From positions 1,860,001-1,924,000 of the forward strand of contig CAKKNE010000002.1 of the NCBI GenBank assembly GCA_918797485.1: 64,000 bases of DNA. The letters run 5' to 3'. This document shows, in pieces, positions 3,202 to 60,037 of this stretch (within the stretch, counting starts at the first letter, position 1; every line of letters starts with the position of its first letter). This DNA comes from Pelagomonas calceolata (taxonomy: Eukaryota). The position numbers were made by a program, and so were the translations under genes. The notes beneath the pieces are model-generated. The model was given only the letters and a program-made list of their open reading frames with translations, did no database searches and was not told the origin of the DNA.

Positions 3202-3227
3202 TTGCTAGTGTCTTTACATCCGCTATC
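3202..3227 (+). promoter_or_regulatory. Recurrent upstream motif copy
   Basis: TTGCTAGTGTCTTTACATCCGCTATC, about 170 nt upstream of the DOHH ATG. Confidence 0.6.
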
Positions 3228-54038: not shown

Positions 54039-55517
54039 TCAGTGGTTGTGCCCTGCGTGCGGGTCCTCGACCTCCTTGTCCCCGGAGCAGTGCGAGTGGT
54101 CGAGGAGCACGAGGCCGATCGCGACGGCTCCGATGATGAAGAGGACGGTGTTGAGGAGCTTGAGGCGCCACGTCGGGTTCTTGTGCACGAACGTCGCCGC
54201 GCACTCCGTCGCGGCGACGTAGACGTAGACGCCGCCGCTGAAGGCCAGCAGCATGCCGCGGTCGCCGTTGCCCGGCTCCAACCACAAAAACCACCAGGCC
54301 CCAATAACGACGGAGGCGCCACTCACCACATTCACGGCGAGCGCTTGTACCGTCGTGAGGCCGCCGCGCGTCACGAGCATGAAGAAGTCGCTCACTTCTT
54401 GGGCGAGCTCGTGGGCCACCGTCGACGACGCGACGGTCCAGCCCTTGGACTGCTGGCAGTCCAGAAACGCGTTGGCGATGAAGATGCCGTCCACAAAATT
54501 GTGCAGAAAGTCCGAAAGAAAAATCGCGAAGCAGAACGACGCGTCGACCTTCCTCGCGGGCCGTTCCGTGTTCACGGCGTCCGCCTTGATGATATCTGAA
54601 CTCTCGGGGCCGCCGCCGTCCTCGATCTGGCAGCACGGCTCCTCGCAGTCGTCCGCCACGTACAAATGCGACGGGTCCGCCGCCGCCGACACCATACCCA
54701 ACAAATAGCCCGCGAGCACACAAGTCCCGAAGCGCCAGTTCCCCTGCACCTCCGTCTGGTAGGAAACCGCCAACAAATGGCTCGCCTCGATCAGCAGAAG
54801 GTAGAAGGCCGTCGCCAATAAACAACCCACGGCGAAGGCCGCCACGCCCATCGTGAAGGGCTCGTTCTCCTCGAGCTTGCCCACGCCAAAGGCAAACCTC
54901 AATATCGCCCCGACGACCGTGCAGGCCAGGACCAAAAACGATGCGAGCGTCGCGTTGCGCCACGCGCGCGCGTCCTTTTTGTTTTGGTTCTTGTCGGACA
55001 ATGGTGCGGCGCACTCCGCGAGGCGCCGCCGGTGGTCGTGGCCCGCGTGGGGATCGACGCCTTCACCTAAAGTGCAGACGGGCTCCACATCAACACCGGC
55101 GGCGTCCTTGAGGTAGTGCGTCGAGACCTCGATCTCATCGAGCCCGTGCTCGAAGAAGAACGCGAAGAAGCCCGTCGCCTCTGCTAATCGCCGGCCGTGG
55201 TCGTGGCCCGCGTGCGGGTCCGTCGCCGCGGGCGTCGTTATTGTGGTCGCGCCGGCGACGAACAAGGCGCAGGCCGTGACCTCGAGATCATGCGGATTTG
55301 ACGCATTATTGTTGCACTTCGAGAGGCCGCTGGCTAATGTTTTTGCCTCGTCGAGAGCGTAATAATCCAGTGCGTCGAGGCCGACGCCGACGGCGAGCAC
55401 CTTGACGTCTATGGCTGTCGTGAAGATGTAGTTGGTCTCGGCATTGAGCTCGAAGACCGCTACACTCTCATACGCCGCCGCGCAGCCTACCAGGAGGGCT
55501 GCCCGCAGCGCGGCCAT
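54039..55517 (-). CDS. ZIP (SLC39, LIV-1-like) zinc transporter with His-rich N-terminal ectodomain
   Basis: Signal peptide, TM4 DFLHNFVDG and TM5 HELAQEVSDF. DPHAGHDH occurs twice and the C-terminus is DPHAGHNH. Confidence 0.92.
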   Translation of the reverse strand: MAALRAALLVGCAAAYESVAVFELNAETNYIFTTAIDVKVLAVGVGLDALDYYALDEAKTLASGLSKCNNNASNPHDLEVTACALFVAGATTITTPAATDPHAGHDHGRRLAEATGFFAFFFEHGLDEIEVSTHYLKDAAGVDVEPVCTLGEGVDPHAGHDHRRRLAECAAPLSDKNQNKKDARAWRNATLASFLVLACTVVGAILRFAFGVGKLEENEPFTMGVAAFAVGCLLATAFYLLLIEASHLLAVSYQTEVQGNWRFGTCVLAGYLLGMVSAAADPSHLYVADDCEEPCCQIEDGGGPESSDIIKADAVNTERPARKVDASFCFAIFLSDFLHNFVDGIFIANAFLDCQQSKGWTVASSTVAHELAQEVSDFFMLVTRGGLTTVQALAVNVVSGASVVIGAWWFLWLEPGNGDRGMLLAFSGGVYVYVAATECAATFVHKNPTWRLKLLNTVLFIIGAVAIGLVLLDHSHCSGDKEVEDPHAGHNH

Positions 55518-56005
55518 CGCGGTCGCCGTCGCTGGCAGGTGTCGACAGGCTGGGTTGCGTGCCGCACAGGTGGGGCAGCGGCTCAGGGGATGCCTGCAGG
55601 TACGCGCTCTGTGACGTGCAGCGCTTCGCGCAAGCCGGGCAGCTTTTTGCCCAAGCTCTTTGTTGGGGGTGTGGGAGCAAATACCCGAACCTTATCCCCC
55701 GCGCCGCCCCGGAGGAATCCGTGGCAGCCCGACGCCCTGCGGGCGGCGGGCGGGCAGCCCTCAGCCCACCCCCTACTTGACGCCACAACAGAAACTCGCT
55801 GTGTTAATTAGCCACTTGCACGGGAAGTACGCGAATAAGGTAACGGCCGGCGCCGTGGAGGCATTATAGCATGCGAGCGTCGCCGCGTCGTGGCTGCCCC
55901 GCGGAGCGCTTTCGCTCCTGTTGCAACAGCGACGCGCAACCGAGGCTGCCTCCCACCTGCCAGAACGTCCGCGACGCGCGCCAACGCCGCCGTCCCGCAG
56001 GCATT

Positions 56006-56686
56006 ATGTCGCTCCGCAGCCTCCTTTTCCTCGCGATCGCGGCGCCGGCCGCGGCGGAGTACGAATGGTACGGGGTGGTGAAGCTGGCGCACTCGTCGGA
56101 GTACACAATGACGATAAAGACGCTGACCGAGACCATGAACCTCTACATCGCGGAGATCAACGAAGGCGCGGCGCTCGACGTGGCAGCGCTGGACACCATC
56201 GCCGACGGCGCCGAGTCCTACATGAAGACGTACGAGGCAAGAGACGGCACCATCGCTGACGGGGACGAAATCGATGTCGGGGAACAGACGGTCGTGACGC
56301 TCACGATGGGCACCGGCGCCACAACGACGTACGAGCTCCACGTTGGGGCGCACTCCCACCGCCGCCGCCTCTCGGGCGACGACGTCTACTTCGCCATCTT
56401 CGCCGGGCACGGCATCGACGAATGGGAGGACTCGTCGGCTCACTTCCTCAAGTGCGGCGCGGGGGCAGCGTGCGGGGACGTCGCGGCCGGCGCCGACATC
56501 GAGCTGGAGTGCGTCGGTGACGTCGACCACGCGGGCCACGACCACGGCCGCCGCCTCTCGGGCGACCACGAGGAGGCCGCCCCAACGTGCGCCAAGCCGT
56601 CGTCGAGCGACGGCGCGTCGACGCCCGCGGCGGCGGTGGCGCTGGCCCTCGCCGGCCTCGCCGGCGGCCTCGCCCTCTTCCTTTAG
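56006..56686 (+). CDS. Secreted, probably GPI-anchored His-rich protein homologous to the ZIP ectodomain (226 aa)
   Basis: Signal peptide, then YEWYGVV, HSHRRRL, FAGHGIDEWE..HFLK and HAGHDHGRRL. C-terminal SSSDGAS is followed by a hydrophobic tail ending the ORF. Confidence 0.82.
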   Translation: MSLRSLLFLAIAAPAAAEYEWYGVVKLAHSSEYTMTIKTLTETMNLYIAEINEGAALDVAALDTIADGAESYMKTYEARDGTIADGDEIDVGEQTVVTLTMGTGATTTYELHVGAHSHRRRLSGDDVYFAIFAGHGIDEWEDSSAHFLKCGAGAACGDVAAGADIELECVGDVDHAGHDHGRRLSGDHEEAAPTCAKPSSSDGASTPAAAVALALAGLAGGLALFL

Positions 56687-56853
56687 GCCTACCCACCGTT
56701 CGGCTAGGTCCCCCGAGCACAAGAGTAAGACTCGACGCTGTGGGTCTCGGGGCGGCGTTTTCTGTTCAAGTTACGGTTCTTGGGTCTGCTAATTAGCTAT
56801 TAGAGAGGTTAGAGAATGAAGAGAAGAAATGCGTTTCGGAGCGCGAGTACGGG

Positions 56854-58272
56854 TTAGCATTCGGGTTCGAGTTCCTGTTCCAATTCGGGCGCCCAGCTCT
56901 GCGCCGGAGGCGGCCGCTCGGCGGCGAGGACGGCCTCGGCGGGTACCTCTTCCTCCTCGGCCGCGAAGGCCCCCGCGCCTTCGTACCCATACGGGACTTC
57001 CACTCGCACATCCGCTTTGGGTATGGGTACCAGGGGCGGCGGCGCATCGGCCTTTGAGTCCGCGGCGTGTTTGTGCCGGGCCTTGTACGCGGGGCAGCCC
57101 GCACACGCGAAGCAGCACAGCGCGACGCAGCACAAGATAAAGACGAGGGCGCCGCACGCGAGGCCGGCGACGAGGCTGACGTTTAGTTTGCAGCACGCGG
57201 ACGAAGACGAGGCACAGCAGGTGTCTTTTTGGCAGCCTATCTCTTCCATTCCCAAGACTGTCCAGTCTTTCCACCGCCCAGTCTCGAGCCAAAAAACACC
57301 GCAGTGACCGTCGTGGAGATCTTCGGCGGCGCAAGTGCCGCACCCCTGGATGTTCCTGAGTGTGTCGAGCGCCGCGACGGTGTGCGGGCAGTACCCGGGG
57401 CCCATGACGTCGGCGCTCCATTGGTAGAACCCTGGGATGCCCAGCTGAGTATTCTTCTCCGTGCAGCCGTCCTTGTCGACGAAGGAGACGCAGTCCCAAC
57501 CGGTCTGGTCCCCCTCCAGGGCTGGGTCGAGCTGGAGCGAGTACCGCGCGATGAAATCTTCCGGGCAGCAGCCGCCCGCCTGTACCTCCGCCAGGGTCGT
57601 GCCGCAGCCGTACTCGTTGTCGAATTTACTTCCGTAGACGCTGACGCAGCACTCGCCCTCGGCCGCCAAGTCCACGATGCCATCGCCGTCGTTATCCTTT
57701 GTGGCGTCGACGGCGCACTCGTTGTCGCCCGAGAGGCGGCGGCCGTGGTCGTGGCCCGAGTGGTCGACGTCACCGACGCACTCCAGCTCGATGTCGGCGC
57801 CGGGGAAGACGTCCCCGCACGCCGACGCGCCGCACTTGAGGAAGTGGACCGACGAGTCCTCCCACTCGTCGATGCCGTGCCCGGCGAAGATGGCGACGTA
57901 GACGTCGTCGCCCGAGAGGCGGCGGCGGTGGGCGTGCGCCCCGATGTGGAGCTCGTACGTCGACGTGGCGCCGGTGCCCATCGTGAGCTCCACGCATTTC
58001 TGGGTCGTGTCGATCTCGATTTCGGTGCCGTGCGCGGCCGTCGCTCCGTAACAGTACGTCTGCATGTAGGACTCGGCGCCGTCGACGATGGTGTCCAGCG
58101 CTGCCGCGTCGGGCGTCGCGCCGATTTCGGCGATGTAGAACCTCATGGTCTCGGTCAGCGTCCTTATCGTGAGGTCGTACTCCGACGAGTGCGCCAGCTT
58201 CACCACCCCGTACCACTCGTAGGCCGCGGCCGGCGCCGCGACCGCGAGGAGAAGGAGGCTGCGGAGTGCCAT
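56854..58272 (-). CDS. Type I membrane His-rich protein (472 aa): same ectodomain plus Cys-rich domain, TM and acidic tail
   Basis: The N-terminal ~180 aa are nearly identical to the 56006 gene. Cys-rich middle and TM LVAGLACGALVFILCCVALCCF. ATG at 58272. Confidence 0.82.
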   Translation of the reverse strand: MALRSLLLLAVAAPAAAYEWYGVVKLAHSSEYDLTIRTLTETMRFYIAEIGATPDAAALDTIVDGAESYMQTYCYGATAAHGTEIEIDTTQKCVELTMGTGATSTYELHIGAHAHRRRLSGDDVYVAIFAGHGIDEWEDSSVHFLKCGASACGDVFPGADIELECVGDVDHSGHDHGRRLSGDNECAVDATKDNDGDGIVDLAAEGECCVSVYGSKFDNEYGCGTTLAEVQAGGCCPEDFIARYSLQLDPALEGDQTGWDCVSFVDKDGCTEKNTQLGIPGFYQWSADVMGPGYCPHTVAALDTLRNIQGCGTCAAEDLHDGHCGVFWLETGRWKDWTVLGMEEIGCQKDTCCASSSSACCKLNVSLVAGLACGALVFILCCVALCCFACAGCPAYKARHKHAADSKADAPPPLVPIPKADVRVEVPYGYEGAGAFAAEEEEVPAEAVLAAERPPPAQSWAPELEQELEPEC

Positions 58273-58438
58273 ATTATGCACCAAGTGGGGCAGCCACAAG
58301 AGTGTGCCTCGCGCTGCGCCGGCGATTCCCAGCGGGCCAGCGCCAATTGATTCGATCCAATTAGCTGCCCCTGGCCCCAAACGCTGTCGGGTGGGCCAAG
58401 GGGGGCTAAGTTTGCCCCCCATGGCGGCGCCCGCGATT

Positions 58439-58463
58439 GCTAACGTCAGTAAGACACTAGCAA
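58439..58463 (-). promoter_or_regulatory. Recurrent upstream motif copy
   Basis: GCTAACGTCAGTAAGACACTAGCAA between divergent genes (58272 and 58688). Confidence 0.6.
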
Positions 58464-58687
58464 CCACGGCGGGCCGAGCTGCTGCTGAAACTGTTTGTGC
58501 GAGTGCTGTGACCGTACTTGTTAAAACGCGTCCTTGCAGCCCACCACCGCGCTACGGCAAGGCAACAGCAGCTAGTACTATATAGCCCTCCTCGCCACCT
58601 AGCACGCGCGCTGCCGCGGCGGAGCGGCGAGCGCGCAAAACAGACAGCCGCGGCGGAACGGCGGCGACGCGCAAAAAAAAAAAAAAG

Positions 58688-60037
58688 ATGGCCGCCTCCG
58701 TCGCCTCGGTCCTCGGCTTCGCCGAGGAGCCCGTGGCGGAAAGGAACCCCATCGCCGCGGCGTTCGGCTTCCCGGGCGCCTACTGGTGGGAGGCCGACTA
58801 TAACTTACAACAGCCGCACCGCTACGCGTCGTTTGACGCCGGGTCTGTCTCAGGAACGCCGGAGCGACGGCCCGACGCGCGGCGTTATAGCTCAACAGCA
58901 CCTGCCTGGTTTTCTGGCACTACTCCTCCCAAAAAAACTTTCACCGTGAAGCCGAAAACGCCTCCACTCACACACCTCGACTTTAGACCAAGGCGCCCTC
59001 TAGGCAAAGGCAAGTTCGGCGAGGTGTACCTGACGACGCACCAACCGTCTGGAAGATTATACGCCTTGAAAGTCTTACACAAGCGCTTATTGTACAACTC
59101 GAAGCTACGAGAACGGGCGAGGAACGAGAGACGCATCAACGGCGCGCTGGGGCCGCATCCCTTCATCATCCGGATGCAATACGCGTTCGCCACAGAACGA
59201 TGTCTTTGTTTAGTGTTGGATCTGGCGCCGTGCGGCGAGCTCTTCCAGTTAGTAAAAGTGGCCCACCCCTGGAAGAACGGCAAGACCAAGCCGGGCAAGT
59301 TCCCGGAACAGGCGGCTCGCTTCTACGTCGCCGAATGTTTATTAGCGCTCGAGTTTTTACATGAGCGACGTGTCTTATACCGTGATCTGAAGCCGGAGAA
59401 CGTCCTCATACAGCGCGACGGCCACGTCTGCATTTCTGATTTCGGTCTATCAAAACCAGGAGTGAACCATCCCCTGCGCGGCGCGCGGTCCATGTGCGGC
59501 ACGCCCGAGTACCTCGCGCCGGAGATTCTGAGAGGGTCCCACGAGCACGGGTTGGCTGTCGACTTCTGGTGTTTGGGGGCTTTATTCTACGAGTTACTCG
59601 ATGGCTATCCGCCTTGGTTCACCAAAGATAAGAAAAAGTTACTTGAAAGGGTCGCGCGGCGCGACTTGGAGCTGAAACTACCGCGAGGTCTGAAGCCGAA
59701 ATTATCAAAAGATGGGGAGCTGTGCTTAAGGGCATTGTTGCATCGGGACGCGACCGTCCGACTGGGAAGCGATGGCGACGCCCAGGCCGTCAAGGACCAC
59801 CCGTGCTTCGGCATGGTCGATTTTCAGGGTCTCGCGATGAGGCACGTCGACCCGCCCTTCCTGCCGACGCGTTTCGTGGCCGATTTGCGGAGTGACGAAG
59901 AAGTTTTATGGAGTGACGTCAAGGTCGATGCGGATCGGAAATTGCAGAGGATGGATATTAGTGATGACCGCTTCGACGAGATCTTCGCGAAGTTCGAGTA
60001 TCGGGGGGAGCGCGACGTGCTCCTCGAGGAGGCCTAA
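58688..60037 (+). CDS. AGC-family Ser/Thr protein kinase
   Basis: LGKGKFGEV, YALK, YRDLKPEN, DFG, CGTPEYLAPE and PPFLP. Confidence 0.93.
   Translation: MAASVASVLGFAEEPVAERNPIAAAFGFPGAYWWEADYNLQQPHRYASFDAGSVSGTPERRPDARRYSSTAPAWFSGTTPPKKTFTVKPKTPPLTHLDFRPRRPLGKGKFGEVYLTTHQPSGRLYALKVLHKRLLYNSKLRERARNERRINGALGPHPFIIRMQYAFATERCLCLVLDLAPCGELFQLVKVAHPWKNGKTKPGKFPEQAARFYVAECLLALEFLHERRVLYRDLKPENVLIQRDGHVCISDFGLSKPGVNHPLRGARSMCGTPEYLAPEILRGSHEHGLAVDFWCLGALFYELLDGYPPWFTKDKKKLLERVARRDLELKLPRGLKPKLSKDGELCLRALLHRDATVRLGSDGDAQAVKDHPCFGMVDFQGLAMRHVDPPFLPTRFVADLRSDEEVLWSDVKVDADRKLQRMDISDDRFDEIFAKFEYRGERDVLLEEA

Follow-up and report, generated by a model that had tools for sequence, protein, structure and literature searches.

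Paired His-RRL sites in an unnamed, putative metal-uptake domain of Pelagomonas calceolata: candidate processing sites that are unlikely to release peptides

Introduction

Do three neighbouring genes of the marine alga Pelagomonas calceolata encode precursors of small metal-binding peptides? The genes lie in a stretch of 64,000 nucleotides (hereafter the window; GenBank assembly GCA_918797485.1, contig CAKKNE010000002.1, positions 1,860,001 to 1,924,000 of the forward strand), and a preliminary description of this DNA had noted that each of the three proteins, one of them a ZIP metal transporter, twice carries a His cluster followed by the tripeptide Arg-Arg-Leu (RRL). It proposed that cleavage at RRL frees His-tailed fragments that act as metallophores or regulate the transporter. 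Passages of PMC9010474 present both the uptake of zinc by open-ocean algae at very low concentration and the origin of strong dissolved Zn ligands as open questions. We report here that the His-RRL sites stand well above chance and belong to an unnamed domain that is shared with prokaryotic zinc-uptake proteins, and that a structure model makes the release of peptides of 55-62 residues unlikely.

Results

Three paralogous ectodomains with six in-frame His-RRL sites

The first gene (P0001; 54039-55517, minus strand, coding frame 54042-55517) encodes 492 residues comprising a signal peptide, an ectodomain, a membrane domain that matches PF02535 in a Pfam scan (E 1e-16, 61.3 bits against a curated cut-off of 35.1) and a C-terminal His tail. 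The translation contains HNFVDG and HELAQE, which we take to be the ZIP metal-site residues of TM4 and TM5 (the fourth and fifth transmembrane segments). Judged by its sequence, P0001 is a ZIP transporter with zinc or another metal as putative substrate. The second gene (P0002; 56006-56686, plus strand, coding frame 56006-56683) encodes a stand-alone protein of 226 residues, with a signal peptide, the domain at residues 19-169, the His-RRL sites and a C-terminus (56603-56683, plus strand) that, judged by eye, consists of a small-residue site, a spacer and a hydrophobic end. This resembles the anatomy of a glycosylphosphatidylinositol (GPI) anchor signal. A similar tail ends most of 78 homologues that come from other data, and P0002 is thus predicted to be GPI-anchored. 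The third gene (P0003; 56854-58272, minus strand, coding frame 56857-58272) encodes 472 residues with a signal peptide, the domain at residues 18-165, a Cys-rich region, one predicted membrane helix and an acidic tail, and gave no Pfam match. All three signal peptides were assigned from sequence. The ectodomains are paralogous, those of P0002 and P0003 being 77% identical and that of the ZIP about 30% identical to them (E 1e-8 to 1e-10). They share a domain of about 130-150 residues, of which the ZIP copy (130 residues; positions 16-148 of the protein, 55074-55472, minus strand) is N-terminal and likewise without a Pfam match.

In the ZIP, site 1 occupies residues 102-111 (55185-55214, minus strand) and site 2 residues 157-166 (55011-55076, minus strand), with the RRL tripeptides at residues 109 and 164 (55185-55193 and 55020-55028). 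The P0002 sites comprise residues 116-122 (56351-56371, plus strand) and 175-184 (56510-56590, plus strand), with RRL at residues 120 and 182 (56363-56371 and 56549-56557), and those of P0003 residues 113-119 (57916-57936, minus strand) and 171-180 (57733-57762, minus strand), with RRL at residues 117 and 178 (57916-57924 and 57733-57741). All six sites are in frame. RRL by itself is frequent in this GC-rich DNA (263 occurrences in six frames of the window), but six of the eight HxH..RRL matches in the same frames are the sites described here, and of 100,000 shuffles per ectodomain 1-7 held two or more RRL and 5-7 one HxH..RRL. The doubled motif is therefore borne out in each protein; since the ectodomains are paralogous, it represents two sites in three copies rather than six independent events. 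The segment of some 50-60 residues that had been noted between the RRL sites also stands as a spacing (55, 62 and 61 residues in P0001, P0002 and P0003), whereas its release as a peptide is not supported, as it forms part of a folded domain.

Conservation of the RRL tripeptide

In a set of 82 homologues, most of which are alleles, site 1 could be located 75 times and site 2 76 times; RRL is present in 73 and 74 of these, respectively. It is retained in alleles that are only 47% identical, and its synonymous codons differ from one homologue to another. By contrast, none of 56 ZnuA proteins with the domain carries it though 52 of them have the His cluster, a contrast weakened by their low arginine content (1.05%), and of 43 open reading frames (ORFs) from genome loci two contain it, neither of them directly after the domain's His cluster. 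A non-redundant set of 142 representatives other than ZnuA holds 38 RRL against 5.6 expected, and 20 of the 38 lie within 8 residues of at least two His (background 9.6%, p 3e-11). In a redundant set, 21 of the 24 further algal proteins that have a His cluster carry His-RxL; this higher figure was replaced by the value of about 12% discussed below.

The middle residue varies (RFL, RLL and RML in P0089, P0117 and P0132) while Leu is fixed, and many algal members have short tandem RRL repeats after the His cluster; together these features point to RxL recognition rather than dibasic cutting. Gly precedes the site-2 RRL in 56 of 74 close homologues, and in 74 distinct His-RRL contexts the preceding residue is Gly in 23, Arg in 23 and His in 19. 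The expectation that RRL would be conserved holds for close homologues; site 1, however, is absent from the ZIP orthologue P0084 (locus L007) and from most of the family. Conserved and His-linked, yet missing from ZnuA and rare family-wide, RRL is a real but optional, eukaryote-type addition to the domain.

The segment between the sites belongs to a folded domain

A structure model from an alignment of 73 sequences (predicted TM score, pTM, 0.71), which replaced an earlier one from 28 sequences (predicted local distance difference test, pLDDT, 48), consists mainly of beta strands and one long helix. In this model strands 106-113 and 126-133 of P0002 both have a pLDDT of about 90, and site 1 lies in the loop that joins them, which is modelled with low confidence. 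The supposed peptide is accordingly the last third of the fold, since its start lies between two confidently modelled strands, and it contains a core strand together with the residues that are most conserved; E141 and H146 are invariant in the 73 sequences, and H135 and E139 are present in at least 90%. The site-1 loop is an optional insertion, empty in P0084 as in most of the family. In the distant proteins P0141, P0244 and P0316 it is filled in the reverse order, with RRL and then His.

Site 2 falls in a linker that is disordered in the model. For a cysteine pattern that required one Cys before the site, 87 sequences were examined, of which 7 were incomplete or without the site; a second Cys follows within 16 residues in all 80 complete sites. 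The remaining cysteines come in pairs (60 with two and 21 with none; 52 with both and 6 with neither), and the ectodomains of P0001 and P0002 hold four each. From this parity we infer disulfides that bridge site 2, C148-C169 in P0001 and C169-C195 in P0002; in P0003 the site lies between Cys165 and Cys186. When P0002 residues 18-122 and 123-184 were modelled as a complex, without use of the alignment, the score was 0.01, which counts neither way.

As the segment carries a core strand of a folded domain, site 1 is optional and site 2 lies in a predicted disulfide loop, the proposed release of a His-tailed peptide is not supported, and we consider it improbable that both sites are cut to free peptides of 55-62 residues, or the whole ectodomain, as metallophores or ZIP regulators. 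The proposal does have precedents, in that silaffin and silacidin precursors free peptides at RXL and, the ectodomain of human ZIP4 is reported to be cleaved in zinc deficiency; the middle segment holds five His and the conserved residues, and very high expression would be in keeping with a secreted ligand. Silaffin-type precursors, however, are repetitive, and here a single non-repeated segment lies within one confidently modelled domain.

The domain in ZnuA, COG0523 and ZIP proteins

The domain has no family in Pfam or NCBIfam. A sequence search of the PDB gave nothing under E 1.7, and Foldseek gave no match at E 0.001. Foldseek with both models, and VIA-align, whose best match had Z 4.8, a root mean square deviation of 4.4 and 105 aligned residues, showed no more than a generic beta-sandwich resemblance. 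All matches of a feature search of the Atlas scored under 0.9; its structure neighbours were clusters of ZnuA, ZIP and CobW proteins (TM 0.81-0.99).

A profile of the domain core, stopping before site 2, matched 103 longer proteins, among which ZnuA accounts for 56. In 40 genome loci, of which 11 ORFs were covered by a Pfam scan, the ZnuA hosts include Poseidoniales archaea, alphaproteobacteria and Prochlorococcus; the domain is inserted at about profile position 62-79, just before the second half of ZnuA, and its genes lie in znuABC/COG0523 clusters. In a Prochlorococcus COG0523 protein whose gene adjoins znuA, the domain stands between cobW and CobW_C. The prokaryotic copies have the same order of domain and His cluster, without His-RRL. 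The full search gave 702 representatives at 50% identity, and among 145 of the best 150 that were scanned, 25 are ZIP and 8 ZnuA proteins, most others being without a Pfam family. None of the viral loci encodes the domain. That the domain itself is found in ZnuA, ZIP and COG0523 proteins strengthens the link of the window proteins to metals beyond what had been proposed.

In a tree of 55 rows the window copies and their close relatives form one clade (98/88), and archaeal copies stand among algal-type ones. P0168 (Corethron) and P0177 (algal-type), both without RRL, are placed among archaeal ZnuA copies, a hint in the tree of transfer between Poseidoniales and algae. Several unusual architectures were also seen. 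A contig with 66% GC that had been binned with a proteobacterium but is probably algal or at least eukaryotic (L040:1-1656) fuses the domain, with a His-linked RRL, to Fea1/phytotransferrin, and a contig from a metagenome-assembled genome (L036:107-2692) has the domain and His tracts in frame with an exonuclease I-like region, as a fusion or an assembly chimera. Many algal members, P0103, P0168, P0173, P0175 and P0177 among them, have besides the domain a further unnamed region that is rich in Cys and His, with HHD.C and H..E motifs and without a Pfam family; in some of these proteins it encloses the beta domain together with His-RRL as an insertion. P0176 and P0320 are fusions with a periplasmic-binding-protein-like region (below the cut-off) and a Hint module.

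Expression, shared promoter and gene neighbourhood

Four poly(A) RNA runs, all under one sample label, contain transcripts of the three genes on the expected strands. Mean read depth was 50-69 for the ZIP gene and 13-51 for the P0003 gene, whereas the P0002 gene reached 123-158 times the ZIP depth and accounted for 0.32-0.50% of all sequenced RNA letters. Read ends accumulate at 55645-55649 and 55796-55811. With starts near 55647 and 55802-55811, the ZIP and P0002 genes share a divergent promoter of about 155 bp (55648-55801). The 5' untranslated region (UTR) of the P0002 gene has a GT..AG intron (55840-56000, plus strand; 293-850 joint reads per run), and the ORF starts at 56006, not at an upstream ATG. 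No well-supported splice joint falls in the coding regions of the three genes among the best 15 of 58 joints. The genes of the window are intron-poor in general, and its GC content is near 63%, the value given for P. calceolata in passages of PMC9481584. Five of 13 metagenome loci (L001, L002, L007, L009 and L010) have the head-to-head ZIP/P0002-type pair, most others being short contigs; L007 is a more distant relative, with flanking genes 75-85% identical.

A further allele or paralogue of P0003, with a different C-terminus like that of P0086, is suggested at 57070-57177 by loose-ended reads in which several differences are linked. The slot between the ZIP and kinase genes is hypervariable in L006, L010 and L011 compared with window 56006-60034, holding one or two copies with swapped C-terminal modules (a GPI tail, a Cys-rich region or an FG-GAP propeller). 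A palindrome in the ZIP 5' UTR, TGTCGACA, was considered as a zinc-deficiency element, as it resembles the plant one, and rejected, being at chance level (2 seen, 0.8 expected) and altered in 3 of 5 related loci. A 15-base motif, GTAAGAYACTAGCAA, has 9 copies at up to 2 mismatches where 0.05 are expected, the pattern having been derived from three of them. The copies lie at window positions 3202, 23081, 36997, 40769, 49613, 50623, 53934, 58449 and 61555; CTAGCG often stands a few bases upstream, those near the three genes are intergenic, and the motif is possibly a common promoter element.

Discussion

The reading that we prefer is of a tethered surface catcher of a transition metal, likely zinc, in which RRL is nicked while the pieces stay together and on the membrane; taken as a whole, we regard it as evenly poised. 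The locus combines one domain in three settings, on a ZIP, by itself and on a protein with a single membrane pass, the first two under a divergent promoter, and in marine prokaryotes ZnuA and a COG0523 chaperone carry the domain as an insert, with the same His cluster behind it. H135, E139, E141, H146 and the His clusters may bind metal, and the very abundant GPI-type copy would concentrate it at the surface and pass it to the scarcer ZIP. An RxL protease would then cut after Leu in two exposed loops, leaving each His cluster at the end of a free, mobile arm, while the fold holds site 1 together and the disulfide bridges site 2, such that no peptide of 55-62 residues is predicted to leave. The role in metal capture is, from the company the domain keeps, a probable part of this reading. 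A cut by a secretory-pathway protease is plausible by analogy, and somewhat favoured, because RRL is conserved, absent from the prokaryotic homologues, sometimes tandem, and in the form RRLAE identical to a peptide cleaved by the Toxoplasma protease ASP5. If cut, the modelled pieces would probably remain tethered. A simple iron-uptake role is disfavoured by the report, in passages of PMC13284251, that P. calceolata ZIP proteins (which ones is unstated) are higher in iron-replete cultures.

Several observations weigh against this reading. His-adjacent RRL is found in only 17 of the 142 non-ZnuA representatives (about 12%), one apparently frameshifted, and the domain must therefore work without it; natural variants lack site 1 (P0084 and P0077) or the site-2 RRL (P0034, a cluster of 9), and the arginine poverty of ZnuA blunts the prokaryotic contrast. 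The disulfides rest on Cys parity, and P0003 has many other Cys. The fusion to the iron-binding Fea1 domain in L040 makes zinc less than certain as the metal, and iron possible too. The expression data come from one sample label of unstated metal status, and read coverage is very low over the GPI-tail region (GC 79%), falling over the last 70 GC-rich bases.

Some of these points serve an account in which RRL is left uncut and the His loops of surface metal catchers carry it as a basic tag with another role, such as sorting or charge, or with none. The rarity of His-adjacent RRL (some 88% of non-ZnuA representatives are without it) and the loss of either site in natural variants agree with this, as does the proteomic record, three short peptide strings not having been found in 11 of the 17 supplementary files of PMC13284251, a pelagophyte proteome paper (files 10 and 13-17 lay outside the search). 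A mere tag accords poorly with a fixed Leu beside a variable middle residue, with tandem repeats behind the His cluster, with retention in alleles 47% identical and with the cleavage of the same motif in diatoms and Toxoplasma, and we find this account rather unlikely. Gly-Arg-Arg is a neuropeptide processing motif, a dibasic cut followed by amidation, and His-Gly-Arg-Arg could in the same way leave a C-terminal His-amide. The Gly before most site-2 RRL of close homologues fits such a scheme; it is found, however, in fewer than a third of the distinct contexts, the Gly of HDHG is already present in prokaryotic ZnuA clusters, and the fixed residue is Leu and not the second Arg, so that we give the idea hardly any credence. 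The stand-alone copies could also have been driven by viruses or grazers to become a variable coat of the cell surface, with metal capture secondary, an account that can coexist with a metal role. Their gene is 47-71% identical to P0002 where the next-door kinase is 99-100% identical, copy number differs, C-terminal modules swap and expression is very high; the His clusters, RRL and putative metal residues are nevertheless fixed across alleles, and the more distant L007 still has the gene head-to-head with the ZIP, which leaves the coat quite improbable.

A bolder version of the tethered catcher, which we put forward as speculation and think unlikely to hold in full, starts from a zinc-scavenging domain common to marine bacteria, archaea and algae and casts the GPI copy, among the most abundant messages, as a zinc sponge on the cell surface that serves the sister ZIP, armed by an RxL protease that frees His-tipped ends and retained by one disulfide. 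Were it true, a strong zinc ligand would pass into seawater on reduction or cell lysis, and the path from ZIP ectodomain to GPI protein taken by the prion family would have been repeated with a different fold. More generally, the locus supplies a small, expressible candidate domain that occurs in all three domains of marine life, the very abundant P0002 transcript could serve as a field marker, and the His-RRL sites are exact places at which to test RxL processing outside silica proteins; the unknown algal RxL protease would gain substrates of a new, non-silica kind. Even if RRL is uncut, the family stands as an undescribed, putative metal-uptake module.

Among the papers listed by open-access searches, none describes the domain in ZIPs or ZnuA, or His-RRL sites in algal metal-uptake proteins, and passages on Ot-Irt1, a His-rich ZIP of Ostreococcus, describe no such domain. 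New, in our view, are the domain and its spread, a predicted GPI-type paralogue next to its ZIP, and sites that a predicted disulfide closes; metal catchers at the cell surface are a known kind, as is processing at RxL. Among such catchers, the diatom proteins ZCRP-B and ISIP2a/phytotransferrin are described in passages of PMC9010474 as membrane-tethered surface proteins proposed to concentrate metal and feed scarcer ZIPs, and as a proposed source of dissolved Zn ligands. P0002 is likewise a putative surface metal catcher supplying a ZIP. ZCRP-B, however, is NikA-like with one N-terminal helix, whereas P0002, modelled as a beta-sandwich and without such a Pfam match, is small, unrelated, predicted to be GPI-anchored and a paralogue of the ectodomain of its ZIP; and induction by Zn status is reported for ZCRP-B in those passages, where P0002 is known from sequence and one RNA sample label. 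The domain itself has likely been met before, to judge by sequence, as the insert of about 150 residues in branch 1a COG0523 proteins of Prochlorococcus and Synechococcus WH8102, for which passages of PMC3323870 give 4-6 predicted strands, 1-2 helices and no known domain. That insert is cytosolic and without RRL, whereas the algal copies are predicted to be extracellular, and those passages draw no link to ZnuA, ZIPs, archaea or eukaryotes.

For RxL processing the nearest cases are the diatom silaffins, silacidins, Sin1 and SAPs, processed at RXL by an unknown protease (passages of PMC4557024, PMC5525289 and PMC5647440). Diatoms are a related algal group, and P0001, P0002 and P0003, secretory proteins too, share with theirs an RxL tripeptide with small or acidic residues next; in the known diatom cases silica-associated proteins lose a propeptide or give off repeat peptides at the cuts, while here the tripeptide sits in loops of a folded domain of putative metal-uptake proteins. 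In the Golgi of Toxoplasma, ASP5 cleaves RRL behind the Leu at any position of the protein chain; it also cleaves RRLAE and RRLSE peptides, and in LCAT the cut lies within an element inserted between the catalytic residues (passages of PMC4764566 and PMC6212819). RRLAE and RRLSG, of the RRLxx type of the TEXEL motif, occur in the lumenal part of the signal-peptide proteins studied here; Toxoplasma, however, is an alveolate parasite, and the RFL, RLL and RML of some family members would not fit the RRL consensus. The prion protein family, finally, derives from the LIV-1 ZIP ectodomain as a free, GPI-anchored, His-rich and cleaved surface protein (passages of PMC3765157). In P. calceolata, too, a ZIP ectodomain is also present as a stand-alone, predicted GPI-anchored protein. 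The three-helix fold of PrP differs from the beta-sandwich modelled here, and the domain, being also present in prokaryotic ZnuA, need not have begun on a ZIP; the likeness is convergent only.

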